Source: a virus
Lineage: Duplodnaviria; Heunggongvirae; Uroviricota; Caudoviricetes
DNA length: 34,932 nucleotides
Virus record (IMG/VR): IMGVR_UViG_2718218452_000007
Strand: one strand, 5' to 3'
Made by a program: the position numbers and the translations under genes. The notes beneath the pieces are model-generated. The model saw only the letters and a list, made by a program, of their open reading frames with translations, did not search any database and was not told where the DNA came from. The stretch's first letter is position 1. Each line of letters begins with the position of its first letter. Below, in pieces: positions 901 through 34,932 of this stretch.

Positions 901-1314
901 GATCGTATGTGCCTTTATGATTGGTCTGTAGATAGTGTAGAGCAGAAAACAAAAGGTGGAGTCAGAACAGGATGAAAGTCGGAGGATAAAAAGTCAGTTC
1001 AAGTATGGAGGATTCAGTGGTTACCACCAGGAGCTTGCAATGGGGACAGCGAATACTAACGGCTGCCACCGATAAATTTCAAAAAAGAGCATATGCCTAA
1101 TATTCAACCAAACAGTGGCATCTTAAATATACTATTCCAAATATATTAAAGCCCCCATGGAGTTACCCTGAAGGGCCTCAATGTCCGTAATTCCTACTTA
1201 TGTAGGAAATGTTGTACAGAACATTTATTATAATCCTATTCAATTATAATAATCATGCCATTATTATATTTAAACACTAGAGAGTGTCGTTGGTATTTAA
1301 TGGGGGAAGGTGAG

Positions 1315-1632
1315 ATGAAAAAGATAGCTGCTATATCATTAATTAGTATTTTTATTATGTCTGGTTGTGCTGTGCATAATGATGAGACAAGTATCGGTAA
1401 ATTTGGTCTTGCATATAAAAGTAATATTCAGCGTAAACTCGATAACCAATACTACACCGAAGCCGAAGCTTCTTTAGCCAGGGGCAGAATATCTGGTGCA
1501 GAAAATATAGTAAAAAATGATGCAGCCCATTTCTGTGTTACTCAGGGCAAAAAAATGCAGATAGTTGACCTGAAGACAGAAGGTGCAGGATTACATGGCG
1601 TCGCTCGTCTGACATTCAAATGTGGAGAGTGA
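1315..1632 (+). CDS. yegR: Small lipoprotein-like protein YegR (105 aa)
   Basis: Tracked ORF starts at 1255, but ATG 1315 has an AAGGTGAG Shine-Dalgarno just upstream and gives MKKIAAISLISIFIMSGC, a signal peptide with lipobox-like Cys. Confidence 0.8.
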   Translation: MKKIAAISLISIFIMSGCAVHNDETSIGKFGLAYKSNIQRKLDNQYYTEAEASLARGRISGAENIVKNDAAHFCVTQGKKMQIVDLKTEGAGLHGVARLTFKCGE

Positions 1633-3025: not shown

Positions 3026-3325
3026 TTAACCAGTCTTTTGACCGGAGTGGGGCGACGTTGTTTCGTTTTGCCCAAAGTGTGCGAGAGCGGGCGCAATTTG
3101 CCCGGACTCAGGAGCGATCTGATTGGTCATGAACCATAAAGTGTATTTGGTGAATTGTGGGGTCTGCAGGATGTTCATCATGACATCTGTTGGAGGTGTT
3201 GAACGACCACTTTCATAGTAACTCAGCGTGCCATACGGAACCCCTGTTAAATCAGCAAGTTGTTGTCTGCTCAAATACTCTGATTTTCGCATTAAGACTA
3301 TCTTCTCGCTTATCGTGTTTGACAT
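3026..3325 (-). CDS. C: Immunity repressor C
   Basis: 99 aa with helix-turn-helix region (LSRQQLADLTGVPYGTLSYYESG); divergent from cox as in P2. Confidence 0.9.
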   Translation of the reverse strand: MSNTISEKIVLMRKSEYLSRQQLADLTGVPYGTLSYYESGRSTPPTDVMMNILQTPQFTKYTLWFMTNQIAPESGQIAPALAHFGQNETTSPHSGQKTG

Positions 3326-3358
3326 GGTGTTTAGATCTCAATAGTATTTAGTTTAGAT
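3319..3358 (+). promoter_or_regulatory. Early promoter Pe with C-repressor operator direct repeats
   Basis: TTGACA at 3319-3324, 17-bp spacer, TAGTAT at 3342-3347; GTTTAGAT at 3329-3336 and 3351-3358, 22 bp apart and flanking the -10. Confidence 0.6.
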
Positions 3359-3439
3359 GTAGATTGTTTAGTGCTTGGATGTGGGCACTAAAAGGCATTA
3401 TAAGACATTAAACGCAATTCATGAGGGCTAGAGGACGAC

Positions 3440-3715
3440 ATGAGCAAGCAAGTAACACTCATGACTGATGCGATTCCTTATCAGGAGTTCGCAAAACTAA
3501 TAGGAAAATCGACAGGAGCGGTTCGTCGGATGATTGATAAAGGAAAGCTGCCTGTAATTGATATGACCGATCCACAATCAGCTTCAGGTCGTGCAGGTGA
3601 ATATTGGGTATACCTTCCGGCATGGAATAACGGACTAAAACTGGCTTATGAAAGCCGCCCTAAAGAGATTCGTGACGGCTGGTTGATGTGGTTAGGTCTC
3701 GGTGAACCACGTTAA
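3440..3715 (+). CDS. cox: Cox (excisionase / repressor of Pc)
   Basis: 91 aa, first gene of the rightward early operon; matches P2 Cox as recalled. Confidence 0.9.
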   Translation: MSKQVTLMTDAIPYQEFAKLIGKSTGAVRRMIDKGKLPVIDMTDPQSASGRAGEYWVYLPAWNNGLKLAYESRPKEIRDGWLMWLGLGEPR

Positions 3716-3725
3716 GGAGAACCGT

Positions 3726-3896
3726 ATGAATGAGCCTCGTTGTATTGCTCAGTTACTGCGTAACGAAAGCCCCAGGGCGATTGACTTCACCATCACCCAC
3801 GGTAAGGGGCGTAAGGGAATCATTATCCGCACCAAAAAACAGAGTCCGTTAAAAAAGGCTCTGACCTTTCTGAAAAGCCGGAGGGTATGGAAATGA
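3726..3896 (+). CDS. Small early protein (P2 orf78 position)
   Basis: ATG 3726 preceded by AAGGAGA; the tracked ORF from 3702 overlaps the cox end. Stop overlaps the B start. Confidence 0.6.
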   Translation: MNEPRCIAQLLRNESPRAIDFTITHGKGRKGIIIRTKKQSPLKKALTFLKSRRVWK

Positions 3897-4393
3897 CAGT
3901 GATGACGCTCAATCTCGTTGAAAAACAGCCAGCAGCTATGCGCCGGATAATTGGTAAGCATCTTGCCGTTCCTCGCTGGCAGGATACATGTGATTATTAT
4001 AATCAGATGATGGAGCGCGAACGGTTAACGGTTTGCTTTCATGCGCAGTTAAAACAGCGTCACGCAACGATGCGTTTTGAAGAAATGAACGACGTCGAAC
4101 GTGAACGGCTGGTTTGTGCAATTGATGAATTGCGTGGGGCATTCTCAAAACGCCGTCAGGTTGGCGCAAGTGAGTATGCATATATTAGTTTTTTAACAGT
4201 CAGTCAGCGTCGTACTTTATTTATGCATGCCGGATTGACTGAAAAAGAATTCAACCAGCCATACTGGCGAATTAATGAAGAATCATGTTACTGGCGTGAT
4301 GCTTTATTCCGTGCATTACGTGAATTATTCAGTCTGTTTGAGTATGCACCGACAATTCTGACGTCGGTAAAACCAGAGCAATATCTGCATTAA
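3893..4393 (+). CDS. B: Replication protein B (helicase-loader-like)
   Basis: 166 aa from the ATG that overlaps the upstream TGA (tracked ORF starts two codons earlier, at 3887); sequence as recalled for P2 B. Confidence 0.85.
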   Translation: MTVMTLNLVEKQPAAMRRIIGKHLAVPRWQDTCDYYNQMMERERLTVCFHAQLKQRHATMRFEEMNDVERERLVCAIDELRGAFSKRRQVGASEYAYISFLTVSQRRTLFMHAGLTEKEFNQPYWRINEESCYWRDALFRALRELFSLFEYAPTILTSVKPEQYLH

Positions 4394-4456
4394 GTAATTA
4401 ACCAGAGTTTTTAACGCACTTAATTGTGCGGGGCTTCTTTTTGCCTGGAGAAAGTC

Positions 4457-4681
4457 ATGCATACAGTTTCTGAAAATCAGTGCGGTAAATACGCATTACT
4501 GCTGCAACAGGCCAGAACCGAAGCACAGGCCGACGCAGCGACGCGCTTTTCTTCTCATCTTGACGCCATGATTCGCCACATCACAAAGGCGGAGTTATCC
4601 CGCGTGGAGATAGTCGAGCTGCTCAGTCAGGAGTCGGAAAAATTTCACAATATCGGATTGTCTCGCGGGGAGGTGCTTTGA
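4457..4681 (+). CDS. Early protein (P2 orf80 position)
   Basis: ATG 4457 with GGAG upstream; the tracked ORF starts 11 codons earlier without a Shine-Dalgarno. Confidence 0.7.
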
Positions 4682-4983
4682 TGTCCTGTTCTCGTTCAGT
4701 TGTATTACTGAATAACGCCTTAAAAATCGCCGTTATGAAAAATGGCGATTTATCTCTTATTCAACTTGGTCTTGATAAAGAAAAACGCGAAATAACTGAG
4801 TCTGTTATCGCGATTTATCAGAACGAATTAAATCTCCTGTCTGATGTGGTCAATTTACTTGTTAAACGCGCTGTATTTCACAAGCAAATCTCCTCCGTGG
4901 ACGAACTGACGAAATTAACGACAGAAATTGCCAGCTATTGCGCTGATGAATTTAAAAAACTTAACGACAAAAGGAGCTGGTAA
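4681..4983 (+). CDS. Early protein (P2 orf81 position)
   Basis: ATG overlaps the upstream TGA; GGAGG 8 nt upstream. Confidence 0.7.
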   Translation: MSCSRSVVLLNNALKIAVMKNGDLSLIQLGLDKEKREITESVIAIYQNELNLLSDVVNLLVKRAVFHKQISSVDELTKLTTEIASYCADEFKKLNDKRSW

Positions 4984-5207
4984 TGCCGGACAACGTAGAT
5001 TTTATTCAGGAACAACAGGCTGAATTACTGGAGCGCCAGATTAACGCGGCAAGGGTAAAGCATTGCGGTGTTTCTGCGCTGGTTTGCGAAGAGTGTGACG
5101 CGCCAATACCTGCTGCCCGTCGTGCGGCTTATCCGTCAGCCACGCGTTGTGTTTCCTGCCAGTCAGTCTTTGAAGCAAAAAACAAACATTACCGGAGAAC
5201 GGCATGA
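4983..5207 (+). CDS. TraR/DksA-family C4 zinc-finger protein (P2 orf82 position)
   Basis: 74 aa with CxxC...CxxC (CEECDAP...CVSCQ); AAGGAG upstream; TAATG overlap. Confidence 0.75.
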   Translation: MPDNVDFIQEQQAELLERQINAARVKHCGVSALVCEECDAPIPAARRAAYPSATRCVSCQSVFEAKNKHYRRTA

Positions 5208-5479
5208 GTATTCGTATTGAAATTGGCGAACGTTATGTCGTTACCAGTGACAGCTTTCAGTTTATTCTCCACGAGAAAAAGAGAGCGGAAAGCGGTAAAA
5301 ACGCCGGTCAGGAATGGCTGGCGGTGGTTGGTTATTACCCGAAATTAAGCCAGCTCGTTTCCGGCCTGATGCATCACGATATTCTGACCGGAAGCGCAAA
5401 GTCTTTTGCTGATTTAAACGCGCAGGTTGAGCAACTCAGCAAGCGTTGTTCAGAGGCTTTTGGCTCATATGGCCGTTAA
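5204..5479 (+). CDS. Early protein (P2 orf83 position)
   Basis: 91-aa ORF, translationally coupled to neighbours. Confidence 0.7.
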   Translation: MSIRIEIGERYVVTSDSFQFILHEKKRAESGKNAGQEWLAVVGYYPKLSQLVSGLMHHDILTGSAKSFADLNAQVEQLSKRCSEAFGSYGR

Positions 5480-7745
5480 AGCCTCTGGGCGTTTTGTCCC
5501 TCCGTCAGCATTTGCCGCAGGCACCGGTAAGACGTTTACCGGTGCTTATGCATGGAACGCGCCACGCGAGGCTGTCGGGCGCGAAAGACCCCTTACACGT
5601 GACGAGATGCGTCAGGTGCAAGGTGTTTTATCCACGATTAATCGCCTGCCTTACTTTTTGCGCTCGCTGTTTACTTCACGCTATGACTACATCCGGCGCA
5701 ATAAAAGCCCGGTGCACGGGTTTTATTTCCTCACATCCACTTTTCAGCGTCGTTTATGGCCGCGCATTGAGCGCGTTAATCAGCGCCATGAAATGAACAC
5801 CGACGCGTCGTTGCTGTTTCTGGCAGAGCGTGACCACTATGCGCGCCTGCCTGGAATGAATGACAAGGAGCTGAAAAAGTTTGCCGCCCGTATCTCATCG
5901 CAGCTTTTCATAATGTATGAGGAACTCTGCGATGCCTGGGTGGATGCGCATGGCGAGAAAGAATCGCTGTTTACGGATGAGGCGCAGGCTCACCTGTATG
6001 GTCATGTTGCTGGCGCTGCACGTGCTTTCAATATTTCCCCGCTCTACTGGAAAAAATACCGTAAAGGGCAGATGACCACGAGGCAGGCATATTCTGCCAT
6101 TGCCCGTCTGTTTAACGATGAATGGTGGACTCATCAGCTTAAAGGCCAGCGTATGCGCTGGCATGAGGCGTTACTGATTGCTGTCGGGGAGGTCAATAAA
6201 GACCGTTCTCCTTATGCCAGTAAACATGCCATTCGTGATGTGCGTGCGCGCCGCCAGGCAAATCTGGAATTTCTTAAATCGTGTGACCTTGAAAACAGGG
6301 AAACCGGCGAGCGCATCGACCTTATCAGTAAGGTGATGGGCAGTATTTCTAATCCAGAAATTCGCCGGATGGAGCTGATGAACACCATCGCCGGTATTGA
6401 GCGTTACGCTGCCGCAGAGGGTGATGTGGGGATGTTTATCACGCTGACCGCGCCGTCAAAGTATCACCCAACACGTCAGGTCAGAAAAGGCGAAAGCAAA
6501 ACCGTCCAGCTAAATCACGGCTGGAATGATGAGGCATTTAATCCAAAGGATGCGCAGCGTTATCTCTGCCGTATCTGGAGCCTGATGCGCACGGCATTCA
6601 AGGATAATGATTTACAGGCCTACGGTTTGCGTGTTGTTGAACCACACCACGACGGAACGCCGCACTGGCATATGATGCTTTTTTGTAATCCACGCCAGCG
6701 TAACCAGATTATTGAAATCATGCGTCGCTATGCGCTCAAAGAGGATGGCGACGAAAGAGGAGCCGCGCGAAACCGTTTTCAGGCAAAACACCTTAACCGG
6801 GGCGGTGCTGCGGGATATATCGCGAAATACATCTCAAAAAACATCGATGGCTATGCACTGGATGGTCAGCTCGATAATGATACCGGTAGGCCGCTGAAAG
6901 ACACAGCTGCGGCTGTTACCGCATGGGCGTCAACGTGGCGCATTCCGCAATTTAAAACGGTTGGTCTGCCGACAATGGGGGCTTACCGTGAACTACGCAA
7001 ATTGCCTCGTGGCGTCAGCATTGCTGATGAGTTTGACGAGCGCGTCGAGGCTGCACGCGCCGCTGCAGACAGTGGTGATTTTGCGTTGTATATCAGCGCG
7101 CAGGGCGGGGCAAATGTCCCGCGCGATTGTCAGACTGTCAGGGTCGCCCGTAGCCCGTCGGATGACGTTAACGAGTACGAGGAAGAAGTCGAGAGAGTGG
7201 TCGGCATTTACGCGCCGCATCTCGGCGCGCGTCATATTCATATCACCAGAACGACGGACTGGCGCATTGTTCCGAAAGTGCCGGTCGTTGAGCCTTTGAC
7301 TTTAAAAAGCGGCATCGCCGCGCCTCGGAGTCCTGTCAATAACTGTGGAAAGCTCACCGGTAGTGATGCTTCGTTACCGGCTCCCACACCTTCTGAGCAC
7401 GCTGCAGCAGTGCTAAATCTGGTTGATGACGGTGTTATCGAATGGAATGACCCGGAGGTCGTGAGGGCGCTCAGGGGAGCATTAAAACACGGTCTGAAAA
7501 CACCAAATCGTCAGCAAAGAAACGGAAGTCCGTTAAAAACACATGAAATTGCACCGTCGGCCAGACTGACCCGGTCGGAACGAATGCAAATCACCCGTAT
7601 CCGCGTTGACCTTGTTCAGAATGGTATCAGGCCTCAGCGATGGGAGCTTGAGGCGCTGGCGCGTGGGGCAACCGTAAATTACGACGGGAAAAAATTCACG
7701 TATCCGGTCGCTGATGAGTGGCCGGGATTCTCGTTATCCATTTGA
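5469..7745 (+). CDS. A: Replication initiation endonuclease A (rolling-circle nickase)
   Basis: Long ORF with HUH-like HWHMM motif and active-site tyrosine pair (GYIAKYISKNIDGY). Start is uncertain: ATG 5469, or in-frame TTG 5460 or ATG 5427. Confidence 0.88.
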   Translation: MAVKASGRFVPPSAFAAGTGKTFTGAYAWNAPREAVGRERPLTRDEMRQVQGVLSTINRLPYFLRSLFTSRYDYIRRNKSPVHGFYFLTSTFQRRLWPRIERVNQRHEMNTDASLLFLAERDHYARLPGMNDKELKKFAARISSQLFIMYEELCDAWVDAHGEKESLFTDEAQAHLYGHVAGAARAFNISPLYWKKYRKGQMTTRQAYSAIARLFNDEWWTHQLKGQRMRWHEALLIAVGEVNKDRSPYASKHAIRDVRARRQANLEFLKSCDLENRETGERIDLISKVMGSISNPEIRRMELMNTIAGIERYAAAEGDVGMFITLTAPSKYHPTRQVRKGESKTVQLNHGWNDEAFNPKDAQRYLCRIWSLMRTAFKDNDLQAYGLRVVEPHHDGTPHWHMMLFCNPRQRNQIIEIMRRYALKEDGDERGAARNRFQAKHLNRGGAAGYIAKYISKNIDGYALDGQLDNDTGRPLKDTAAAVTAWASTWRIPQFKTVGLPTMGAYRELRKLPRGVSIADEFDERVEAARAAADSGDFALYISAQGGANVPRDCQTVRVARSPSDDVNEYEEEVERVVGIYAPHLGARHIHITRTTDWRIVPKVPVVEPLTLKSGIAAPRSPVNNCGKLTGSDASLPAPTPSEHAAAVLNLVDDGVIEWNDPEVVRALRGALKHGLKTPNRQQRNGSPLKTHEIAPSARLTRSERMQITRIRVDLVQNGIRPQRWELEALARGATVNYDGKKFTYPVADEWPGFSLSI
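7320..7339 (+). other. Probable replication origin (A-protein nick region) inside gene A
   Basis: gcgcctcggagtcctgtcaa matches the P2 ori nick region as I recall it, in the 3' part of A. Confidence 0.45.
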
Positions 7746-8277
7746 GTAAAAACACAACTAATTTGGTATGCAGAGCGACTCTAAGGCAGAAGAAGGTCAA
7801 TAGTATACTGAAATAGAAGACTAAATTATATTGAATCGTTAGCATGTAATTTAACTCAAATATAAAAGAGCATCTAATTTGGCTAAGAAAATCATTGTGA
7901 GTGACCTTCTGTCGAAGTATAACTCATCGTGAGCCAAGTAATAAAAATAATCAGTTAATGTTTCAAAAATCACAGGGTGGGTGCTTCTTGTGTCAAGCGG
8001 ATTAATTCTCATGTGTCATAGATGCTTATTTTGTCTGATGGCGGTGTTATTCACTAATATGGCCATGAGGTTTCGGGAAAATCCTGGGGGGTTAATGCAT
8101 GGTATAAGAAAACAAAATCATCAGTAAAGAAGATAGTTCCTTGAAATAGAGTAAGATGTTGTGACTGGCGTGCAAAGAGAGTGTAAGCCCTCTGATGAAA
8201 AATCATTTATTTTGTTATGGGTATGTAGGTTCTATTTTGTAATTTATACCCCCACTTATAAACGCAGGGGTAGGAGA

Positions 8278-8544
8278 TTATTTTCTGTTGAGTTTATTGA
8301 TGAACAATAATACTACTGATACAAAAATAGCGGAAAAAATATAATAAATGGTTTCTGTATAGCCACCTAGATTAAGATGTTTTATTATCTTGGTAATACC
8401 TGAGTTTTCAAAGAGTGGTTTCGTTATCACAGGTGAGAGAGATGTTGAGGCAACTAAGCCAAACGTTATAGTAATATTCCTGTTGCTTATTTCGTTTTTG
8501 CTTGCATCTTTTAGTTTTATAACTTGCATTCTTGATTTTAACAT
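8278..8544 (-). CDS. Small protein with C-terminal transmembrane anchor (88 aa), second gene of cargo operon
   Basis: ORF 31 nt downstream of the 438-aa gene; hydrophobic IYYIFSAIFVSVVLLFI then basic tail; AT-rich; weak Shine-Dalgarno. Alternative start at Met6. Confidence 0.55.
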   Translation of the reverse strand: MLKSRMQVIKLKDASKNEISNRNITITFGLVASTSLSPVITKPLFENSGITKIIKHLNLGGYTETIYYIFSAIFVSVVLLFINKLNRK

Positions 8545-8575
8545 TTTGGCAAGGTTCTTTCGAGCCAGTTCTAAA

Positions 8576-9892
8576 TCATTTGACTGGACGTTGTTGGATA
8601 TAATGTTTTGTATTTCTCCATATTTTTTTTGAAAAGACTCTTAACCATTCCTCAAATTGAATGATTTCCTCTTGGGTTGTGGCTAGGCCAATATGGTTGT
8701 TCTCATTCTTGACTTGTTCTATTTTGGATTCGTAAAAAAAAGATATAAAATCTCTCAGGTCACTTTTTACTTGGTTGTCCCATATGATATTTGATTCGGA
8801 ATACGAATCTGTGATGTTTTTAAATTCTACTTTTTTTGAACATAGTGTGAGGGTTGCTCCTTGCTCTGAATAATAATTAAAGTCATTAAATACTCTGAGG
8901 TCGATGTGATTTTGCTTGTCTTTTTCATCATTAAAAAAAGTGCTCTTGCTTAATAGTGAAGATATTAATTGTTTGTTGTATTTACTATTTTTATTGGCGT
9001 TGCTTTTTTGGTTGTCATGGCTAAAAATATAAATATTAGGTTTCCCTTGCCATCCATGGTAGAAGTCTGTTGTTTTTCTGCCAAATAAAATATCTTTTAG
9101 TGTTTTTTTTCTTAATGTGTTGTGAATTATTGCTATTGTGGTGCGAGCGATATCGCTTAAGCTATTTTGTAGTTCAAATTCTTTTGCGTAGTTAATATAT
9201 TTTCCATTGATTGTTAAGTTGTCGCAAGATATATCTCTTGATTTTACTTCCACCTGTTTGATTTGTGTTGACAATAATCTCTTGGCTATAACTCGCTGGA
9301 CCAAATTCATTGGTGATAAGTCAAGCTCAATGACTCTGTTTGTATACTCCGTACTGGCAATGATTGAACTGCTGGCATTAAAAGGGAGATTTATTTTTGT
9401 GTCAATGAAATAATTTAATTCATTATCATAACGTTCTTCGTCGATGAAAGTTATATGGGATATGCCATTTCGATATAGGCGTATTATTGGAATTAAGAAA
9501 AACTCATTTTCTCCGCAACCAAATAAAATGGGTTTTTGACAACAAATAATGTTGTTGTAATATGATTGCTCTGTGATATGGAATAGTTTGTTTTCTGATA
9601 GTCTCAAGTTGATACAATTGTAGAATGAATGGATTGTTAAATCGCATAAGCCGGGAGAGTTTAAAAAATTAGCATCACCCAAATTGACGCTAACTCCATT
9701 ATTCTCGTATTTCATTGATAACTTTGTTGATAACACATTACAGCCTGAAAGACACTTAAAAGTGTTATCAGGGGTTAAAATCGCCAAAAACATACCTGTT
9801 TTGATTAATTGCGATGCAGTTTCCTCCGCATTGTCATATGTTGGTGACTGGGTTGTGTAAGTATGCCAGACTGTTCCTTTTTTGATCTGCAT
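8576..9892 (-). CDS. Hypothetical 438-aa protein, first gene of cargo operon at the P2 tin/old position
   Basis: Long clean ORF in very AT-rich DNA with AGGA Shine-Dalgarno 6-7 nt upstream; N/K/I/Y-rich; no Walker A, so not an Old-type ATPase; no family recognised. Confidence 0.75.
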   Translation of the reverse strand: MQIKKGTVWHTYTTQSPTYDNAEETASQLIKTGMFLAILTPDNTFKCLSGCNVLSTKLSMKYENNGVSVNLGDANFLNSPGLCDLTIHSFYNCINLRLSENKLFHITEQSYYNNIICCQKPILFGCGENEFFLIPIIRLYRNGISHITFIDEERYDNELNYFIDTKINLPFNASSSIIASTEYTNRVIELDLSPMNLVQRVIAKRLLSTQIKQVEVKSRDISCDNLTINGKYINYAKEFELQNSLSDIARTTIAIIHNTLRKKTLKDILFGRKTTDFYHGWQGKPNIYIFSHDNQKSNANKNSKYNKQLISSLLSKSTFFNDEKDKQNHIDLRVFNDFNYYSEQGATLTLCSKKVEFKNITDSYSESNIIWDNQVKSDLRDFISFFYESKIEQVKNENNHIGLATTQEEIIQFEEWLRVFSKKIWRNTKHYIQQRPVK

Positions 9893-10057
9893 GTTTTTCC
9901 TTCTGGATTTTTCTAGAACACAATTCTCAATATTGTATGGTTACGTTGCATGATAATGCATTTGTTTCAAAATATCTTTTTGATGAGCTTCAGGTAGTGT
10001 TGGTGCGGGTTAAAGATAGTGATTCAACTGCATTCAAACTGCCCCATGAAGCGGGCG

Positions 10058-10076
10058 GGCGAGGCGGGGAAAGCAC
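10058..10076 (+). other. cos site (19-nt cohesive end sequence)
   Basis: ggcgaggcggggaaagcac, the P2 cohesive-end sequence as recalled, in a GC-rich tract next to Q. Confidence 0.7.
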
Positions 10077-10218
10077 TGCGCGCTGGCGGTGGTGCTGATT
10101 TTATTTTTTCAGCGTCTCAGCGCGTCGTGACGGCGTTTGGATTGTGCGCCGGGGCGTTGGTGTGTCTGCGGGGTGTTTTGTGCGGTGGTGAGCGTGTGAG
10201 GGCGTGATGACGGGGTGT

Positions 10219-10240
10219 AAAAAAGCCGCCCGCAGGCGGC
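10219..10240 (-). terminator. Intrinsic terminator after Q (end of the P-Q operon)
   Basis: Minus-strand hairpin gccgcc-tgcg-ggcggc followed by TTTTTT, just 3' of the Q stop. Confidence 0.6.
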
Positions 10241-10245
10241 GATGT

Positions 10246-11280
10246 TCAGCCGTTGTCGGTGTCCAGTGAGTAGTTTTTAAAGCGGATGACCTCCTGACCG
10301 AGCCAGCCGTTTATCTCGCGGATCCTGTCCTGTAACGGGATAAGCTCATTGCGGACAAAGACCTTTGCCACTTTCTCAATATCACCCAGCGACCCGACGT
10401 TCTCCGGCTTGCCGCCCATCAACTGAAAAGGGATGCGGTGCGCGTCCAGCAGGTCTGCGGCGCTGGCTTTTTTGATATTAAAAAAATCGTCCTTCGTTGC
10501 CACTTCACTGAGCGGGATAATTTTAATGCCGTCGGCTTTCCCTTGCGGGGCATAGAGAAACAGATTTTTAAAGTTGTTGCGGCCTTTCGACTTCACCATG
10601 TTTTCGCGGAGCATTTCGATATCGTTGCGATCCTGCACGGCATCAGTGACGTACATGATGTATCCGGCATGTGCGCCGTTTTCGTAATACTTGCGGCGGA
10701 ACAGCGTGGCCGACTCATTCAGCCAGGCAGAGTTAAGGGCGCTGAGATATTCCGGCAGGCCGTACAGCTCCTGATTAATATCCGGCTCCAGCAGGTGAAA
10801 CACGGAACCGGGCGCGAAGGCTGTCGGCTCGTTGAAGGACGGCACCCACCAGTAAACATCCTCTTCCACACCACGGCGGGTATATTTTGCCGGTGAGGTT
10901 TCCAGTCTGATGACTTTACCGGTAGTGCTGTAACGCTTTTCCAGAAACGCATTACCGAACACCAGAAAATCCAGCACAAAGCGGCTGAAATCCTGCTGGG
11001 ACAGCCACGGATGCGGGATAAATGTCGAGGCCAGAATATTGCGTTTGACGTAAATCGGGGAGCTATGATGCACGGCAGCACGCAGGCTTTTTGCCAGACC
11101 GGTAAAGCTGACCGGTGGCTCATACCATCTGCCGTTACTGATGCATTCGACGTAATCCAGAATGTCACGGCGGTCGAGTACCGGCACCGGTTCGCCAAAG
11201 GTGAATGCCTCCATTTTCGGGGCGCTGGCGGTCATTTTTTTTGCCGCAGGTTGCAGTGTTTTCCCTTTTTTCTTGCTCAT
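10246..11280 (-). CDS. Q: Portal protein
   Basis: 344 aa, start overlaps the P stop; matches P2 Q as recalled. Confidence 0.92.
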   Translation of the reverse strand: MSKKKGKTLQPAAKKMTASAPKMEAFTFGEPVPVLDRRDILDYVECISNGRWYEPPVSFTGLAKSLRAAVHHSSPIYVKRNILASTFIPHPWLSQQDFSRFVLDFLVFGNAFLEKRYSTTGKVIRLETSPAKYTRRGVEEDVYWWVPSFNEPTAFAPGSVFHLLEPDINQELYGLPEYLSALNSAWLNESATLFRRKYYENGAHAGYIMYVTDAVQDRNDIEMLRENMVKSKGRNNFKNLFLYAPQGKADGIKIIPLSEVATKDDFFNIKKASAADLLDAHRIPFQLMGGKPENVGSLGDIEKVAKVFVRNELIPLQDRIREINGWLGQEVIRFKNYSLDTDNG

Positions 11281-13052
11281 CAGTAAAACTCCAGAATGGT
11301 GGATGTCAGCGGGGTGCTGATACCGGCGGTGAGTGGCTCATTTAACAGGGCGTGCATGGTCGCCCAGGCGAGGTCGGCGTGGCTGGCTTCCTCGCTGCGG
11401 CTGGCCTCATAAGTGGCGCTGCGTCCGCTGCTGGTCATGGTCTTGCGGATAGCCATAAACGAGCTGGTGATGTCGGTGGCGCTGACGTCATATTCCAGAC
11501 AGCCACGGCGGATGACGTCTTTTGCCTTGAGCACCATTGCGGTTTTCATTTCCGGCGTGTAGCGGATATCGCGCGCGGCGGGATAGAACGAGCGCACGAG
11601 CTGGAACACGCCGACACCGAGGCCGGTGGCATCAATACCGATGTATTCGACGTTGTATTTTTCGGTGAGTTTGCGGATGGATTCCGCCTGAGTGGCAAAG
11701 TCCATGCCTTTCCACTGGTGACGCTCAAGTATTCTGAATTTGCCACCGGCCACCACCGGCGGTGCCAGTACCACGCATCCGGCGCTGTCGCCACGGTGTG
11801 ACGGGTCGTAACCAATCCAGACCGGGCGGGAGCCGAACGGATTGGCGGCAAACGGCGCATAGTCTTCCCATTCTTCCAGCGTGTCGACCATGCAGCGTTG
11901 CAGCTCCTCGAACGGGAACACCGATGCCTTGTCGTCAACAAATTCACACATGAACAGGTTTTTAAAATCGTCGGCGCTGTTTTCGCGTTTAAGCTGCTCA
12001 ATGTCGAACAATGTGCAGCCGCCTTTCAGGGCGTCCTCAATGGTGACAATCTGCCGCCACTGGCCGTCCGCACAGAGAAGCCCACCGGCAAGGGCGTTAT
12101 GACTGACGTCGATTTCCACGCGTTCGGCGGCGCTGGCGCGTCCCCGGTTAAACAGTTCACCGGACCAGAACGGGTAGGCGTCGTGCGCCAGCGTGGACGG
12201 GGTGGAGAAATAGGTCGAGCGCAGGTGGCTCTGTGAGGCCATACCTGATGCCACCTTACGCAGTACCTGAAAATTCGGGATCCAGAAAATCTCGTCGACG
12301 TACAGGTCGCCGTTATGGCTCTGCGCGGTGTTGGAGTTGGTGCCGAGAAAAATCAGTTTTGCGCCGTTATTGCCCAGGACAATCGGGTCACCGGTAAGGT
12401 CAACGTCAACCAGACGGGCAAAGGCGATGATGTATTCGCGGAACACATACGCCTGCGTTTTACTGGCCGACAGAAAAATCTGGTTATGACCGGTTTTCAG
12501 GGCGCGCAGCAGCGCCTCGCGGGAAAAATAAAACGTCGCGCCAATCTGGCGGGATTTCAGGATATCGCGGATGCGGTGCTCAAGCCCTGCGCGATACCAG
12601 TGCAACTGATATTCGAAAGACTGCTCAAAGAAAATCTGCTCCAGCTTTTCGATGGCCTCGTCACTGAAAAAATTCTTTTTCGGTTTGCGACGCCCGCCTT
12701 TGTTGCGGTTAGCGACGTTCGGATTAAGGTCTGCCTCGTTGCCGGTCTGACTGTAACGGTTGACCCGTGCCAGTCGTTCAATCTGGCGTCCGAGCAGGTC
12801 AATTTCCTTGAAGTCACCGCCGGTTTTCTGCGGTTTGATGATGAGCCGGGTCAGCCGCGCTTCCAGACTCATTTCGACACGGCTGATGGGGGCAACGCTG
12901 TCCCAGCCGTCGCGCTGTTTCCAGCTCTGCACCGTCGGGCGTTTCATCTGCAACATGGCGGCAATCTGCGGCACGGAAAATCCCTGCCAGTACAGCAGCG
13001 CCGCCTGACGACGCGGGTCGTGTAAAAGAGTGGTGTCTGTGGTGATGGTCAT
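11280..13052 (-). CDS. P: Terminase large subunit (ATPase/nuclease)
   Basis: 590 aa from ATG 13052 (tracked ORF is 10 codons longer); matches P2 P as recalled. Confidence 0.92.
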   Translation of the reverse strand: MTITTDTTLLHDPRRQAALLYWQGFSVPQIAAMLQMKRPTVQSWKQRDGWDSVAPISRVEMSLEARLTRLIIKPQKTGGDFKEIDLLGRQIERLARVNRYSQTGNEADLNPNVANRNKGGRRKPKKNFFSDEAIEKLEQIFFEQSFEYQLHWYRAGLEHRIRDILKSRQIGATFYFSREALLRALKTGHNQIFLSASKTQAYVFREYIIAFARLVDVDLTGDPIVLGNNGAKLIFLGTNSNTAQSHNGDLYVDEIFWIPNFQVLRKVASGMASQSHLRSTYFSTPSTLAHDAYPFWSGELFNRGRASAAERVEIDVSHNALAGGLLCADGQWRQIVTIEDALKGGCTLFDIEQLKRENSADDFKNLFMCEFVDDKASVFPFEELQRCMVDTLEEWEDYAPFAANPFGSRPVWIGYDPSHRGDSAGCVVLAPPVVAGGKFRILERHQWKGMDFATQAESIRKLTEKYNVEYIGIDATGLGVGVFQLVRSFYPAARDIRYTPEMKTAMVLKAKDVIRRGCLEYDVSATDITSSFMAIRKTMTSSGRSATYEASRSEEASHADLAWATMHALLNEPLTAGISTPLTSTILEFY

Positions 13053-13120
13053 GAATACCTCGCCGTGATGAATACACGGCAAGGCTACTGAGTCGCGCCC
13101 CGCGATTCGCTAAGGTGCTG

Positions 13121-13139
13121 TTGTGTCAGTGATAAGCCA
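13121..13139 (+). promoter_or_regulatory. Late-promoter activator element in the divergent P/O control region
   Basis: TTGT-N11-GCCA; the same TTGT-N11-RCMA pattern recurs at 20301-20319 and 26607-26625 upstream of the other late operons. Confidence 0.45.
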
Positions 13140-13225
13140 TCCGGGACTGATGGCGGAGGATGCGCATCGTCGGGAAACTGATGCCGACATGTGACTCCTC
13201 TAATCACTATTCAGGACTCCTGACA

Positions 13226-14080
13226 ATGGCAAAAAAAGTCTCAAAATTCTTTCGTATCGGCGTTGAGGGTGACACCTGTGACGGGCGTGTCATCAGTGCG
13301 CAGGATATTCAGGAAATGGCCGAAACCTTTGACCCGCGAGTCTATGGTTGCCGCATTAACCTGGAACATCTGCGCGGCATCCTGCCTGACGGTATTTTTA
13401 AGCGTTATGGCGATGTGGCCGAACTGAAGGCCGAAAAGATTGACGATGATTCGGCGCTGAAAGGCAAATGGGCGCTGTTTGCGAAAATCACCCCGACCGA
13501 TGACCTTATCGCGATGAACAAGGCCGCGCAGAAGGTCTATACCTCAATGGAAATTCAGCCGAACTTTGCCAATACCGGCAAATGTTATCTGGTGGGTCTG
13601 GCCGTCACCGATGACCCGGCAAGCCTCGGCACGGAATACCTGGAATTCTGCCGCACGGCAAAACACAACCCCCTGAACCGCTTCAAATTAAGCCCTGAAA
13701 ACCTGATTTCAGTGGCAACGCCTGTTGAGCTGGAATTTGAAGACCTGCCTGAAACCGTGTTCACCGCCCTGACCGAAAAGGTGAAGTCCATTTTTGGCCG
13801 CAAACAGGCCAGCGATGATGCCCGTCTGAATGACGTGCATGAAGCGGTGACCGCTGTTGCTGAACATGTGCAGGAAAAACTGAGCGCCACTGAGCAGCGC
13901 CTCGCTGAGATGGAAACCGCCTTTTCCGCACTTAAGCAGGAGGTGACTGACAGGGCGGATGAAACCAGCCAGGCATTCACCCGCCTGAAAAACAGTCTCG
14001 ACCACACCGAAAGTCTGACCCAGCAGCGCCGCAGTAAAGCCACCGGCGGTGGCGGTGACGCCCTGATGACGAACTGCTGA
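13226..14080 (+). CDS. O: Capsid scaffolding protein
   Basis: 284 aa from ATG 13226 (tracked ORF starts 22 codons earlier). Confidence 0.9.
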   Translation: MAKKVSKFFRIGVEGDTCDGRVISAQDIQEMAETFDPRVYGCRINLEHLRGILPDGIFKRYGDVAELKAEKIDDDSALKGKWALFAKITPTDDLIAMNKAAQKVYTSMEIQPNFANTGKCYLVGLAVTDDPASLGTEYLEFCRTAKHNPLNRFKLSPENLISVATPVELEFEDLPETVFTALTEKVKSIFGRKQASDDARLNDVHEAVTAVAEHVQEKLSATEQRLAEMETAFSALKQEVTDRADETSQAFTRLKNSLDHTESLTQQRRSKATGGGGDALMTNC

Positions 14081-14138
14081 CCGGCGTCAGTCAGTCCGGG
14101 AAAACCTTCACGATTAACCCTTAATTTCAGGAAAAACT

Positions 14139-15212
14139 ATGCGCCAGGAAACCCGCTTTAAATTTAATGCCTACCTGTCCCGTGTTGCCGAACTGAACGG
14201 CATCGACGCCGGTGATGTGTCGAAAAAATTCACCGTTGAACCGTCGGTCACCCAGACCCTGATGAACACCATGCAGGAGTCCTCTGACTTTCTGACCCGC
14301 ATCAACATTGTGCCGGTCAGCGAAATGAAAGGGGAAAAAATTGGTATCGGTGTCACCGGCTCCATCGCCAGCACCACCGACACCGCCGGTGGCACCGAGC
14401 GTCAGCCGAAGGACTTCTCGAAGCTGGCGTCCAGTAAGTACGAATGCGACCAGATTAACTTCGATTTTTATATTCGCTACAAAACGCTTGACCTGTGGGC
14501 GCGTTATCAGGATTTCCAGCTCCGTGTCCGTAACGCCATTATCAAACGTCAGTCCCTTGATTTCATCATGGCCGGTTTTAACGGCGTGAAGCGTGCCGAA
14601 ACCTCTGACCGCAGCAGCAATCCGATGCTGCAGGATGTGGCGGTCGGCTGGCTGCAGAAATACCGCAATGAAGCCCCGGCGCGTGTGATGAGTAAGGTCA
14701 CTGACGAGGAAGGCCGCACCACCTCTGAGGTTATCCGCGTGGGTAAGGGCGGTGATTATGCCAGCCTTGATGCACTGGTGATGGATGCGACCAACAACCT
14801 GATTGAGCCGTGGTATCAGGAAGACCCTGACCTTGTGGTGATTGTGGGGCGTCAGTTACTGGCGGACAAGTATTTCCCCATCGTTAACAAGGAGCAGGAC
14901 AACAGCGAAATGCTGGCCGCTGACGTCATCATCAGCCAGAAACGCATCGGTAACCTGCCGGCGGTACGCGTCCCGTACTTCCCGGCGGATGCGATGCTCA
15001 TCACGAAGCTGGAAAACCTGTCCATCTACTACATGGATGACAGTCATCGCCGCGTGATTGAGGAAAACCCGAAACTTGACCGCGTGGAGAACTACGAGTC
15101 AATGAACATTGATTACGTGGTGGAAGACTACGCCGCCGGTTGTCTGGTGGAAAAAATTAAGGTCGGTGATTTCTCCACACTGGCTAAAGCGACCGCAGAG
15201 CCGGGAGCGTAA
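14139..15212 (+). CDS. N: Major capsid protein
   Basis: 357 aa, directly after O. Confidence 0.92.
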   Translation: MRQETRFKFNAYLSRVAELNGIDAGDVSKKFTVEPSVTQTLMNTMQESSDFLTRINIVPVSEMKGEKIGIGVTGSIASTTDTAGGTERQPKDFSKLASSKYECDQINFDFYIRYKTLDLWARYQDFQLRVRNAIIKRQSLDFIMAGFNGVKRAETSDRSSNPMLQDVAVGWLQKYRNEAPARVMSKVTDEEGRTTSEVIRVGKGGDYASLDALVMDATNNLIEPWYQEDPDLVVIVGRQLLADKYFPIVNKEQDNSEMLAADVIISQKRIGNLPAVRVPYFPADAMLITKLENLSIYYMDDSHRRVIEENPKLDRVENYESMNIDYVVEDYAAGCLVEKIKVGDFSTLAKATAEPGA

Positions 15213-19497: not shown

Positions 19498-20283
19498 TTA
19501 TGAGTGATTTTTATTTGATGCTTTGTATTCTACAACCTTCTTATTGGCGTAAAGGAATTTTGTATATGACAGGAATATAACCAGACCTGAAATGAAATAG
19601 ATGAGGGATATTATTAATAATGCTTTTTTTTGGCTGTTATTATCTTTAATCTCCTGACTTAACCATTCCGAGTCCTCCTCGTTTAGCTGTAAGAGCTTAT
19701 TGCAGGCGATCTCAGGAAGTGTGTCTTTTATAAATACGTTTCGTAGCCTCTTGCAATCGGCAAGGCTATAAGTTTTATTGAATTCAACTGTTTTATTGTT
19801 GAAGGATAAAAGAACTTTGTCACTATAAACATAGTACATCATATTTTTATATGGTATGCCTATGGCATCTCTTACTATAACGGATTGTTTGTTGTGTATA
19901 TAACATGCGAAGAGAATATAAATAATGCTGGACAGAATTACAATTATTGTTTTAATTATGTGTGGTGGTTTTGTTATGTCACCCCAGAAGCGAGTAAGAA
20001 AAAAATACGATGTTTTTAGTTTTCCATCAATCAGCCCCTGCTGTATCATTCTCACATCTTCGATGCCTGATACATTGATTCCGTTAATTATTTTAAATAG
20101 TTGAATGTCGCGCCATTTTTTGTCGAGCATTTTTAACTTTCTGTCTGAATACTCAAAATTGAAATGATGTGCAATAAACCTCATAAGATTACTTTTACCA
20201 AAGGTAATAAATGTTAATGCTATTAATAAAAATAGATACAAAGAGATAAACCACCACGCATTAGTCACATTATCACTGAACAT
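19498..20283 (-). CDS. Hypothetical 261-aa integral membrane protein (cargo at the P2 orf30 position)
   Basis: AT-rich ORF with GAGGAGA Shine-Dalgarno; three hydrophobic helices (WWFISLYLFLLIALTFITF, IIKTIIVILSSIIYILFACYI, ALLIISLIYFISGLVIFLSY); opposite strand to the late operons. Confidence 0.75.
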   Translation of the reverse strand: MFSDNVTNAWWFISLYLFLLIALTFITFGKSNLMRFIAHHFNFEYSDRKLKMLDKKWRDIQLFKIINGINVSGIEDVRMIQQGLIDGKLKTSYFFLTRFWGDITKPPHIIKTIIVILSSIIYILFACYIHNKQSVIVRDAIGIPYKNMMYYVYSDKVLLSFNNKTVEFNKTYSLADCKRLRNVFIKDTLPEIACNKLLQLNEEDSEWLSQEIKDNNSQKKALLIISLIYFISGLVIFLSYTKFLYANKKVVEYKASNKNHS

Positions 20284-20300
20284 TACGCTCTCCTCGAATG

Positions 20301-20319
20301 TTGTATGGTCGTTCTACAA
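20301..20319 (+). promoter_or_regulatory. Late-promoter activator element upstream of V
   Basis: TTGT-N11-ACAA, a perfect 4-bp dyad; same pattern as at 13121 and 26607. Confidence 0.45.
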
Positions 20320-20366
20320 ATGAATCCAGATAGCATAACTTTTATATATTGTGCAATCTCACACGC

Positions 20367-21002
20367 ATGAACACTCTCGCAAATATTCAGGAACTCGCGC
20401 GCGCACTGCGCAACATGATTCGTACCGGCCTTGTCGTCGAAACCAACCTTAAAGCCGGTCGCTGCCGTGTGCAGACCGGTGGCATGTGCACTGACTGGCT
20501 TCAGTGGCTGACCCATCGTGCCGGACGTTCGCGCACATGGTGGGCACCTTCCGTGGGGGAGCAGGTGCTGATTCTGGCTGTGGGCGGTGAACTCGACACG
20601 GCGTTCGTTCTGCCGGGGATTTATTCCGGCGATAACCCCGCGCCGTCTGCGTCGGCGGATGCCCTGCATATCCGTTTCCCTGACGGGGCGGTGATTGAGT
20701 ATGAACCCGAAACCAGTGCACTCACGGTAAGCGGAATTAAAACGGCCAGCGTGACGGCTTCTGATTCTGTTACTGCCACGGTGCCGGTGGTCATGGTGAA
20801 AGCATCAACCCGCGTCACCCTGGACACACCGGAGGTGGTCTGCACCAACAGGCTGATTACCGGCACGCTGGAAGTGCAGAAGGGCGGGACGATGCACGGC
20901 AACATTGAACACACCGGCGGTGAACTCTCATCAAACGGTAAGGTACTGCATACCCATAAACACCCCGGCGACAGCGGCGGCACAACCGGGAGCCCTCTAT
21001 GA
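20367..21002 (+). CDS. V: Baseplate spike protein
   Basis: 211 aa from ATG 20367 (MNTLANIQ...); tracked ORF starts at a TTG 6 codons earlier. Confidence 0.9.
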   Translation: MNTLANIQELARALRNMIRTGLVVETNLKAGRCRVQTGGMCTDWLQWLTHRAGRSRTWWAPSVGEQVLILAVGGELDTAFVLPGIYSGDNPAPSASADALHIRFPDGAVIEYEPETSALTVSGIKTASVTASDSVTATVPVVMVKASTRVTLDTPEVVCTNRLITGTLEVQKGGTMHGNIEHTGGELSSNGKVLHTHKHPGDSGGTTGSPL

Positions 21003-25774: not shown

Positions 25775-26368
25775 ATGTTTACTAAGCGACGATTAAAAAA
25801 TATTAACTGGGAGGCAAGTTCAGTGATTCTTGCTATGGTTCTCTTTGCTGGAAATATATTTTATACAAATCATCGTGATGATATAAGCATGGAGGCTGAG
25901 AGAGACAGTATCAGAACAATGTTTGCATATGAAATCGCTAATAACCATCGCGCTCTCACCTTTCTTGATAAAACGAGAAATATTGGCTTTGACGAAAATT
26001 CGGAGCATTTTGTTGGCGAGCCTTTTGCCATTAATGTCAAATCATCAGGGGGACCTCGCTTACAGATTGCATTAAACCAGACTGATAAAGTGTTTAAATC
26101 ATACTTCAGCGAATTAAGTAAGCTTGATAAAGAGGATGTTACTCTTCTTATGGACTATTACCATGAGCAAAGCATCCTGCTGGAGCGTGTAAAATCTACG
26201 TTACAGAAGATGAAAAGTGGTAATGATATTAAAGTTGATATTGATGGTTACTTATTAGAAGAACACTTCATGAATGAGCTTAATCTTTCTAATATTTTGC
26301 TTAAACGCTATAGCTATTTATTATCACAGCACGCTAAAGAACATAAAACAAAAGATTTACATAATTGA
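25775..26368 (+). CDS. Hypothetical 197-aa protein with N-terminal membrane anchor (cargo at the P2 Z/fun position)
   Basis: AT-rich ORF with AAGGTG Shine-Dalgarno; one hydrophobic helix near the N-terminus (SSVILAMVLFAGNIFY), then a charged soluble domain. Confidence 0.72.
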   Translation: MFTKRRLKNINWEASSVILAMVLFAGNIFYTNHRDDISMEAERDSIRTMFAYEIANNHRALTFLDKTRNIGFDENSEHFVGEPFAINVKSSGGPRLQIALNQTDKVFKSYFSELSKLDKEDVTLLMDYYHEQSILLERVKSTLQKMKSGNDIKVDIDGYLLEEHFMNELNLSNILLKRYSYLLSQHAKEHKTKDLHN

Positions 26369-33570: not shown

Positions 33571-34932
33571 TCACTTACCGTGGGGATTACGCGTGGTTTC
33601 CCCGGAGAAATTACGCATCAGCAGCGCGTAATTGAGCTCAAGATCCTGCGGGACCGGGAGCCACACAGTATAACCATCGCCTGGTGCTATCGGCATAGCT
33701 TCGCCTTTGGCGTTTTCCATGTGCTCAAGGGTAAAATTAATGTTGCCTTGCGGCGTCATCAGCTCAAGGCTGTCGCCAACGGAGAATTTATTTTTCACCG
33801 CTACCGCCGCGAGGTCCCCCTTGCGCTCACCGGTAAACTCACCAACAAACTGCTGGCGGTCAGAAACTGAATAACCGTATTCGTAGTTCTGATAATCGTC
33901 GTGAGTATGACGACGCAGGAAACCTTCGGTATAGCCACGATGCGCCAGACCTTCCAGAGTTTCCAGCAGGCTGGTATCGAACGGTTTTCCCGCAGCGGCG
34001 TCATCGATAGCTTTGCGGTAAACCTGTGCGGTGCGTGCACAATAGTAGAAAGATTTGGTACGACCTTCGATTTTCAGCGAATGCACGCCCATTTTGGTCA
34101 GGCGTTCTACATGGGCGATGGCGCGCAGATCTTTCGAGTTCATGATGTAAGTGCCGTGCTCATCTTCAAACGCGGTCATATACTCGCCCGGACGCTGGGC
34201 CTCTTCGATCATAAACACTTTGTCGGTTGGTGCGCCGATACCCAGCGTCGGCTCAACATTTTGCACCGGAATCGGCTCGTACTTGTGTACGATGTTGCCA
34301 ACATCATCTTCTTTCCCTTCCTGGACGTTGTACTCCCAGCGGCAGGCGTTGGTGCAGGTGCCCTGGTTCGGGTCGCGCTTGTTGATATAGCCAGAGAGCA
34401 GGCAGCGACCGGAGTAGGCCATGCACAGCGCGCCGTGAACGAAGATCTCGATCTCCATATCCGGCACCTGATTGCGGATCTCTTCAATCTCTTCCAGCGA
34501 CAGCTCGCGAGAGAGGATCACGCGGGTCAGGCCCATTTGCTGCCAGAATTTCACCGTCGCCCAGTTCACGGCGTTAGCCTGCACCGAAAGGTGGATCGGC
34601 ATTTCAGGGAAGTGCTCACGCACCAGCATAATCAGCCCTGGATCGGACATAATCAGCGCATCCGGCCCCATTTCCACCACCGGTTTCAGGTCACGGATAA
34701 AGGTTTTCAGCTTGGCGTTGTGCGGTGCAATGTTGACCACGACATAAAACTTTTTCCCCAGCGCGTGGGCTTCATTGATGCCGAGCTGAAGATTTTCGTG
34801 GTTGAATTCGTTGTTGCGCACACGCAGGGAATAACGCGGCTGGCCCGCATAAACAGCATCTGCGCCATAAGCGAAAGCGTAACGCATATTTTTCAGCGTT
34901 CCCGCCGGGGAAAGGAGTTCCGGTTTAAACAT
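33571..34932 (-). CDS. yegQ: Peptidase U32-family protein YegQ (RlhA, 23S rRNA 5-hydroxycytidine synthase)
   Basis: 453 aa, start codon at the window end (34930-34932); N-terminus MFKPELLSPAGTLKNMRYAFAYGADAVYAGQP as recalled. Confidence 0.88.
   Translation of the reverse strand: MFKPELLSPAGTLKNMRYAFAYGADAVYAGQPRYSLRVRNNEFNHENLQLGINEAHALGKKFYVVVNIAPHNAKLKTFIRDLKPVVEMGPDALIMSDPGLIMLVREHFPEMPIHLSVQANAVNWATVKFWQQMGLTRVILSRELSLEEIEEIRNQVPDMEIEIFVHGALCMAYSGRCLLSGYINKRDPNQGTCTNACRWEYNVQEGKEDDVGNIVHKYEPIPVQNVEPTLGIGAPTDKVFMIEEAQRPGEYMTAFEDEHGTYIMNSKDLRAIAHVERLTKMGVHSLKIEGRTKSFYYCARTAQVYRKAIDDAAAGKPFDTSLLETLEGLAHRGYTEGFLRRHTHDDYQNYEYGYSVSDRQQFVGEFTGERKGDLAAVAVKNKFSVGDSLELMTPQGNINFTLEHMENAKGEAMPIAPGDGYTVWLPVPQDLELNYALLMRNFSGETTRNPHGK

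Follow-up and report, generated by a model that had tools for sequence, protein, structure and literature searches.

The window analyzed here, the whole 34,932-nucleotide (nt) stretch of IMG/VR virus record IMGVR_UViG_2718218452_000007, comprises a P2-like prophage with a yegS-like kinase gene on one side and a peptidase U32 gene on the other, and carries approximately 2.25 kb of cargo between replication gene A and the cos-proximal backbone with the portal gene. Two leftward open reading frames (ORFs) in this cargo, of 438 and 88 amino acids (aa), are two parts of one frameshifted gene and do not form an operon. The intact form of this gene encodes a 537-aa member of the protein family PHROG 24946, and on balance we favor the reading that this protein is a single-protein, membrane-acting anti-phage system expressed by the lysogen, of which the window carries a broken allele.

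The intact protein matches positions 5–540 of the 540-position PHROG 24946 profile (E = 0), whereas the 438-aa ORF covers positions 5–428 and the 88-aa ORF positions 454–540. Alignment with intact alleles identified one added A as the sole frame-breaking difference, which lengthens the A7 tract of codons 421–423 to A8 and shifts the frame at codon 424. With one A deleted in silico, the translation is 537 aa long and matches the commonest Escherichia coli allele exactly (P0028, 369 contigs); the intact allele has the accession WP_001165947.1. The 438-aa ORF retains the alpha/beta region and a portion of the stalk helices but neither the GEI motif nor the two membrane helices, while the 88-aa ORF contains, in this order, the last part of the long stalk helix, a first transmembrane segment (TM1), a loop, a second transmembrane segment (TM2) and a basic tail. 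The latter ORF starts at M450, the first in-frame ATG of the C-terminal remnant, and is called in every allele with an upstream frameshift because residues 265–449 contain no methionine. Near-identical inserts in other E. coli are mostly annotated with a single 537-aa coding sequence, and all 25 close homologs as well as most of 239 distant representatives are single proteins of approximately 510–590 aa.

The initial annotation of this DNA had placed both ORFs correctly and interpreted them as a two-gene operon, in which a large soluble protein is paired with a separate small membrane anchor bearing a single transmembrane helix. This pairing is an artefact of the +1 frameshift, as relatives encode a single 534–540-aa protein that the extra A splits here, and the supposed anchor contains both a moderately and a strongly hydrophobic segment. 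A genuine operon with a soluble 438-aa protein and a separately translated 88-aa membrane anchor would be in keeping with the presence of both ORFs in the window, with the ATG of the smaller one 32 nt past the upstream stop and with the fact that the split allele is real and no assembly error. It is nevertheless effectively refuted, and we consider it highly improbable: the ORFs occupy different frames of one profile, the window allele is one base away from the major 537-aa allele, the final 15 residues of the larger ORF are out of frame, no convincing Shine-Dalgarno sequence was found for the 88-aa ORF, the intact form is present on approximately 400 contigs versus three with this split, and none of the homologs, near or distant, normally occurs in a two-gene form. 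The 438-aa and 88-aa pair should therefore be annotated as one frameshifted gene.

The A8 split is shared by two closed genomes (C3 and C7) that are 100% identical to the window insert. As long as only these two carried it, a sequencing error had to be considered; this was ruled out by the independent Logan read-level assembly SRR11484414 (L042), which encodes the same 438-aa product with the same A8 tract. This assembly differs from the window at 31 portal-side positions and carries a different set of single-nucleotide polymorphisms (SNPs) in the cargo. As the A8 tract thus occurs on a different SNP background, the extra A is a real mutation, and the +A allele exists on at least two haplotypes, through recurrence or recombination. 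Apart from the frameshift the window allele shows no damage, and all backbone genes of the prophage look intact. Because the truncated body loses the GEI motif, the end of the stalk and both helices, and no Shine-Dalgarno sequence precedes the 88-aa remnant, the gene is most likely inactive in the window (a null allele), and at best very leaky via slippage on the A8 tract.

In agreement with the initial annotation, which had recognized the P2 tin/old position between gene A and cos and a segment far more AT-rich than the phage backbone, the cargo is flanked by gpA and by cos-proximal DNA and the portal gene (Table 1), and its GC content (7746–10000) is 31–34% compared with 53–57% in the flanking backbone, summarized as 32.5% versus about 53%. 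In DNA of 33% GC, a 438-codon open frame has a chance probability of approximately 2e-15. The same 2.3-kb insert is present in 12 of 5,426 complete E. coli genomes with 98.8–100% identity. A good Shine-Dalgarno sequence (AAGGA, 9898–9902) lies 5 nt upstream of the cargo-gene ATG. Promoter-like sites were no more common than in shuffled sequence and none was identified with confidence, and an Rfam scan of 7500–10400 returned no RNA elements. The small ORFs at the 3' end of the cargo have no family matches and are not kept in divergent loci. The integration site is defined by the yegS-like lipid kinase gene (DAGK_cat/YegS_C; 1–900) and the peptidase U32 gene (33571–34932).

Table 1. Coordinates in the window of the cargo gene, its parts and its surroundings, and frameshift alleles of the cargo gene.
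Feature	Position	Strand	Remarks
P2 replication gene A (gpA)	5427..7745	+	Pfam Phage_GPA, E 7.5e-122; left boundary of the hotspot
AT-rich 3' part of the cargo	7746..8277	.	Small ORFs of 53, 50, 49 and 48 aa
Cargo gene	8278..9892	-	Intact form 1614 nt / 537 aa, PHROG 24946; +1 frameshift in the window
88-aa ORF	8278..8544	-	Residues 450-537 of the intact protein
438-aa ORF	8576..9892	-	Intact-protein residues 1-423, then 15 residues out of frame (IWRNTKHYIQQRPVK)
Homopolymer with the extra base	8623..8630		A8 on the gene strand; A7 in intact alleles (codons 421-423)
AT-rich 5' leader of the cargo gene	9893..10000	-	
cos-proximal P2 backbone	10001..10245	.	Common to P2-like phages; right boundary of the hotspot
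Portal-gene terminator	10225-10240	-	Within the cos-proximal backbone
Portal gene Q	10246..11280	-	Same orientation as the cargo gene
Allele +A (A7 to A8)	codon ~421		Window, C3, C7, SRR11484414
Allele -A in an A8 tract	9103..9110, codon ~261		264-aa product, 23 contigs
Allele -T in a T7 tract (gene strand)	8933..8939, codon ~318		L016
Allele -A	codon ~356		L011, in whose assembly several genes are frameshifted

The intact protein is predicted to consist of a cytoplasmic N-terminal region of approximately 350 residues, followed by a helix bundle and two C-terminal membrane helices. In an AlphaFold2 model (predicted local distance difference test, pLDDT, 79; predicted template modeling score, pTM, 0.77), mixed alpha/beta domains without a recognizable fold extend to approximately residue 350 and are followed by three long helices (366–396, 400–421 and 438–482), the third of which continues into the moderately hydrophobic and almost invariant TM1 (family consensus TIAFGLIASTSLSPII.KP). 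Based on hydropathy alone, membrane helices were called at residues 472–491 (TM1; Kyte-Doolittle (KD) values of 1.2–1.9) and approximately 513–532 (TM2; KD 1.7–2.8), which are separated by a loop of about 20 residues and followed by a short basic tail. TM1 is present family-wide and better conserved than any other stretch of the C-terminal part, and TM2, which is strongly hydrophobic, is likewise a family-wide segment of variable sequence. Family members have in common the N-terminal alpha/beta region, the long helices and both hydrophobic C-terminal helices. Throughout the wide family, P135, G143, N168, W281, P285, Q295, R333, D337, L348, G425, E426, G478 and P492 are nearly invariant.

Homologs of the intact protein are widespread. 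A word-indexed search retrieved 26 clusters, exclusively from Enterobacterales and with lengths of 534–540 aa each, and its repetition with a diverse family alignment returned the same 26 close proteins and nothing further. When 1.84 billion representatives were searched exhaustively with a profile (E <= 1e-3), the matches comprised 239 clusters, defined at 50% identity, most of which are 510–590 aa long and match end to end; their sources include Enterobacterales, Pantoea, several Pseudomonas species, a Goldiibacteriota metagenome-assembled genome (MAG) and many metagenomes. No locus was found in a scan of species-representative genomes with another family alignment, and tblastn against 50,697 phage records, P2 included, returned no match. 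PHROG 24946 is matched by 83 of 88 diverse relatives; it is already catalogued without a function, and membership says nothing on mechanism.

Neither ORF had been assigned to a recognized family in the initial annotation, and Pfam, NCBIfam and PADLOC models indeed match neither of them, nor the intact protein. Likewise, 135 diverse family members produced no significant match to any Pfam, NCBIfam or PADLOC model, and the lone PADLOC match among the 88 relatives was to PDC-M18B (E 0.006). Single-sequence and profile searches of PDB sequences returned no match, and structure comparison of the intact protein identified no significant fold match. The accession was not found in literature full text or in the supplements of the 2026 P2/P4 preprint and of DefensePredictor. 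Rousset et al. 2022 list the cargo gene in their Table S5A as a lone 'hypothetical' at the hotspot, outside the tested set.

A defense role of the family gene is strongly suggested by its genomic contexts. The gene lies between the portal gene and gpA, oriented like the portal gene, in approximately 25 loci with family identities of 33–100% and gpA identities of 36–100%; it thus recurs at this hotspot in divergent P2-like phages, as a single gene and not as the pair for which the initial annotation had proposed a survey. The gpA–portal locus of P2 and the int–psu locus of P4 are experimentally validated anti-phage hotspots (PMC9122126), and in P4 loci six of eight randomly chosen sets of unknown genes were protective (10.64898/2026.02.27.708500). 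The most distant Enterobacterales member is encoded by a P4-like satellite of Citrobacter koseri (L005), between the integrase gene and delta/psu. Among further members, one resides inside a type I restriction-modification (R-M) operon, after GmrSD_N and HEPN genes (L036, a MAG contig, 3467–14722), and another is next to the genes of an Mrr nuclease and of a PIN/FitA pair. In two loci of one cluster the family gene immediately follows that of a 1270-aa SIR2 protein. One member shares an integrase island with a pair of AAA_15/21 and HNH genes, and one lies directly after the CI-like repressor gene of an unrelated temperate phage, a position that recalls rexAB. Septu-like genes are also among the family neighbors. 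All six distant members examined lie in defense-type neighborhoods, in a qualitative survey of six loci without a background statistic, and on this qualitative basis members recur beside defense genes or within validated hotspots. The defense role suggested in the initial annotation is a reasonable but unproven hypothesis, and the intact gene a good candidate for anti-phage activity.

No partner gene is conserved across divergent loci and nothing else in the cargo is kept; the neighbors in L005 and in Serratia loci are also unrelated to each other. As no partner is conserved, the family gene appears to be a single-gene system. In L005, unannotated genes encoding 319-aa and 242-aa proteins (7739–9413) share the int–psu hotspot and have no Pfam match or relatives in other loci. 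Four passengers lie between hsdM and hsdR of the R-M operon on L036, namely DUF6119, GmrSD_N and HEPN_RiboL-PSP genes and the family member. Upstream of the family member on two Pseudomonas metagenome contigs (L037/L038, 450–9939), SIR2_2 is accompanied by four co-oriented unannotated genes (approximately 460, 565, 665 and 151 aa), a gene set that could constitute a multi-gene defense system. A degraded P2-like prophage of Enterobacter (L008–L010) that also carries a family member contains a 438-aa Ion_trans_2 (potassium-channel-like) gene among its tail genes (3189–4505).

In the mechanism we propose, the cytoplasmic body would sense an infection cue and the C-terminal helical hairpin, probably oligomeric, would perturb the inner membrane, which would result in abortive infection or exclusion. 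The frameshift in the window separates the sensor-like body from the membrane helices. Several points weigh against this reading. The context survey is small and qualitative as described above, and approximately one quarter of P2 hotspots hold non-defense cargo such as partition systems or toxins (PMC9122126), so hotspot position alone is no proof of defense. The literature searched contained no phage-protection experiment on any family member, PADLOC-DB v2.0.0 returned no match to the intact protein even at E values up to 10, and no recognizable catalytic or pore motif was found in the protein. Furthermore, the two-pass topology is not certain, as the hydrophobicity of TM1 is only moderate and this helix is broken at 483–485 in the AlphaFold2 model.

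The main rival to a membrane-effector mechanism is membrane-anchored direct defense, or superinfection exclusion, at the site of phage genome entry as in SNIPE/PD-lambda-1 or Sie-like systems, in which the helices would be a mere anchor and the body the active part. The most conserved polar residues (W281, Q295, R333, D337 and E426) do lie in the cytoplasmic body, members are prophage-encoded and in one case directly follow a repressor gene, and SNIPE provides a precedent for membrane anchoring in direct defense (PMC13190303). However, domain scans detected no nuclease or other enzymatic domain, the strong conservation of TM1 relative to the remaining C-terminal part would be unexpected for a passive anchor, and SNIPE is built differently, with an N-terminal transmembrane segment, DUF4041 and GIY-YIG. 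We therefore regard direct defense at the entry site as the less probable mechanism, with a modest chance of being correct.

The family has no assigned function, and P2 hotspots are also known to hold partition systems and cytolethal distending toxin (PMC9122126), which leaves room for a non-defense moron, such as a lysogenic-conversion or virulence membrane protein, a housekeeping-type ion channel or a selfish addiction toxin. This appears decidedly unlikely in view of the six distant contexts, all of defense type and one inside a type I R-M operon, the presence of the gene in both P2 and P4 hotspots and the lack of a conserved antitoxin-like partner; membership in the CorA ion-channel family is in addition rejected from profile and motif searches. 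The Pfam CorA model matched none of 135 members (88 + 47), the hhalign probability versus E. coli CorA was 0.4%, and neither GMN nor G[MVI]N occurs anywhere in the protein, which has a conserved FGL at the start of TM1 instead. CorA effectors occur in type III CRISPR systems, and CorA is retained here as a loose architectural analogy.

Compared with known systems, the favored single-protein anti-phage system resembles P2 old/tin in occupying the same gpA–cos/portal slot as AT-rich accessory cargo of a P2-type phage, but differs in lacking sequence similarity to these genes in the tblastn search and in being a single gene with C-terminal membrane helices. The absence of a Walker A motif, noted initially as a reason that the large protein is not Old, was confirmed, and no Old-type ATPase/TOPRIM model of Pfam or PADLOC matches. 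Lactococcal AbiZ is a single-protein abortive-infection factor with C-terminal membrane helices; the cargo protein shares with this type the combination of a large cytoplasmic part and C-terminal membrane helices in one protein on a mobile element, but matches no PADLOC abortive-infection (Abi) model. The transmembrane-effector systems of Rousset et al. 2022, for example AC1 with a TIR and a transmembrane protein, are likewise located in the cos-proximal P2/P4 hotspot and have predicted membrane helices as the likely effector (PMC9122126), yet are multi-gene systems with sensor or signaling domains (TIR, hydrolase), in contrast to the one domain-free protein of the cargo. SNIPE/PD-lambda-1 is also a single membrane-anchored defense protein of E. 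coli, whereas its N-terminal transmembrane segment, DUF4041 and GIY-YIG nuclease have no counterpart in the cargo protein, which has C-terminal helices (PMC13190303). Candidates of this kind are numerous at P2/P4 hotspots, and the cargo-gene family stands out as unusually broad, domain-free and supported by varied contexts. Judged from these comparisons, it is a credible new family within hotspot-encoded single-gene defense with a membrane part.

If the intact gene protects, it would represent a new single-protein defense family without a known domain or recognizable fold, and a compact model for one polypeptide that couples sensing to a membrane effector. The family, with its 239 clusters in Enterobacterales, Pseudomonas and beyond, is missed by DefenseFinder-type and PADLOC-type annotation.

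The +A allele of the window is one of four different frameshifts found in the cargo gene (Table 1). Only a minority of contigs, roughly 6%, carry a broken allele. Five of the 13 homopolymers of at least 7 nt in the window fall inside the 1.6-kb cargo gene, and the recurring homopolymer frameshifts suggest a mutation-prone and probably costly gene that is repeatedly switched off. They contrast with a recent claim that defense pseudogenes are rare in P2/P4, and give natural access to the fitness cost of defense genes carried by prophages.

Homopolymers are known to mediate phase variation of R-M systems, and long A/T runs to cause transcriptional slippage. By analogy, the cargo gene could be a phase-variable defense gene, in which poly-A/T slippage reversibly toggles a costly protein within the lysogen population and RNA polymerase or ribosome slippage on A8 might additionally supply low levels of full-length protein in the 'off' allele. 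Four different indels, each in a homopolymer of 7–8 nt, the occurrence of the +A allele on two SNP haplotypes, the otherwise undamaged state of the frameshifted allele and the strong enrichment of the cargo gene in long homopolymers relative to the remaining window would all fit such switching. However, 7–8 nt is a short tract length for phase variation to be efficient in E. coli, composition alone produces such runs in AT-rich genes, and the broken alleles are a minority of which several reside in decaying prophages, consistent with plain decay. Some of the indels may also be sequencing errors; in L011, many genes are frameshifted. Reversible switching is therefore unlikely in our view. The more elaborate proposal that PHROG 24946 is a widespread immune protein composed of a new-fold sensor and a CorA-like two-helix pore, toggled by slippage and 'off' in the window, is more doubtful still.

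A homolog with 50% identity in another P2-like phage is also in two pieces (L033, 6272–7862). E. coli TUM11352 carries the same P2-like segment twice, on the 88-kb plasmid pMTY11352_3 with intact genes (L004) and on the chromosome (L011). The chromosomal copy has frameshifts in gpA, the terminase gene, a DUF5405 gene and the cargo gene, and is either a second copy in decay or the product of a noisy assembly.

The window contains three further AT-rich regions. A second cargo of 33–39% GC occupies the P2 orf30-type position among the tail genes (19498–20669, minus strand) and consists of overlapping leftward ORFs of 128 and 261 aa without a significant Pfam or PADLOC match; it may be another candidate accessory or defense cassette. 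Pfam and PADLOC likewise returned no match for a 125-aa ORF (1255–1632, plus strand) that separates the prophage integrase gene from the host yegS-like gene, nor for a 197-aa ORF of approximately 36% GC (25775–26368, plus strand), which is located between the tail-fiber and sheath genes at the P2 Z/fun position.

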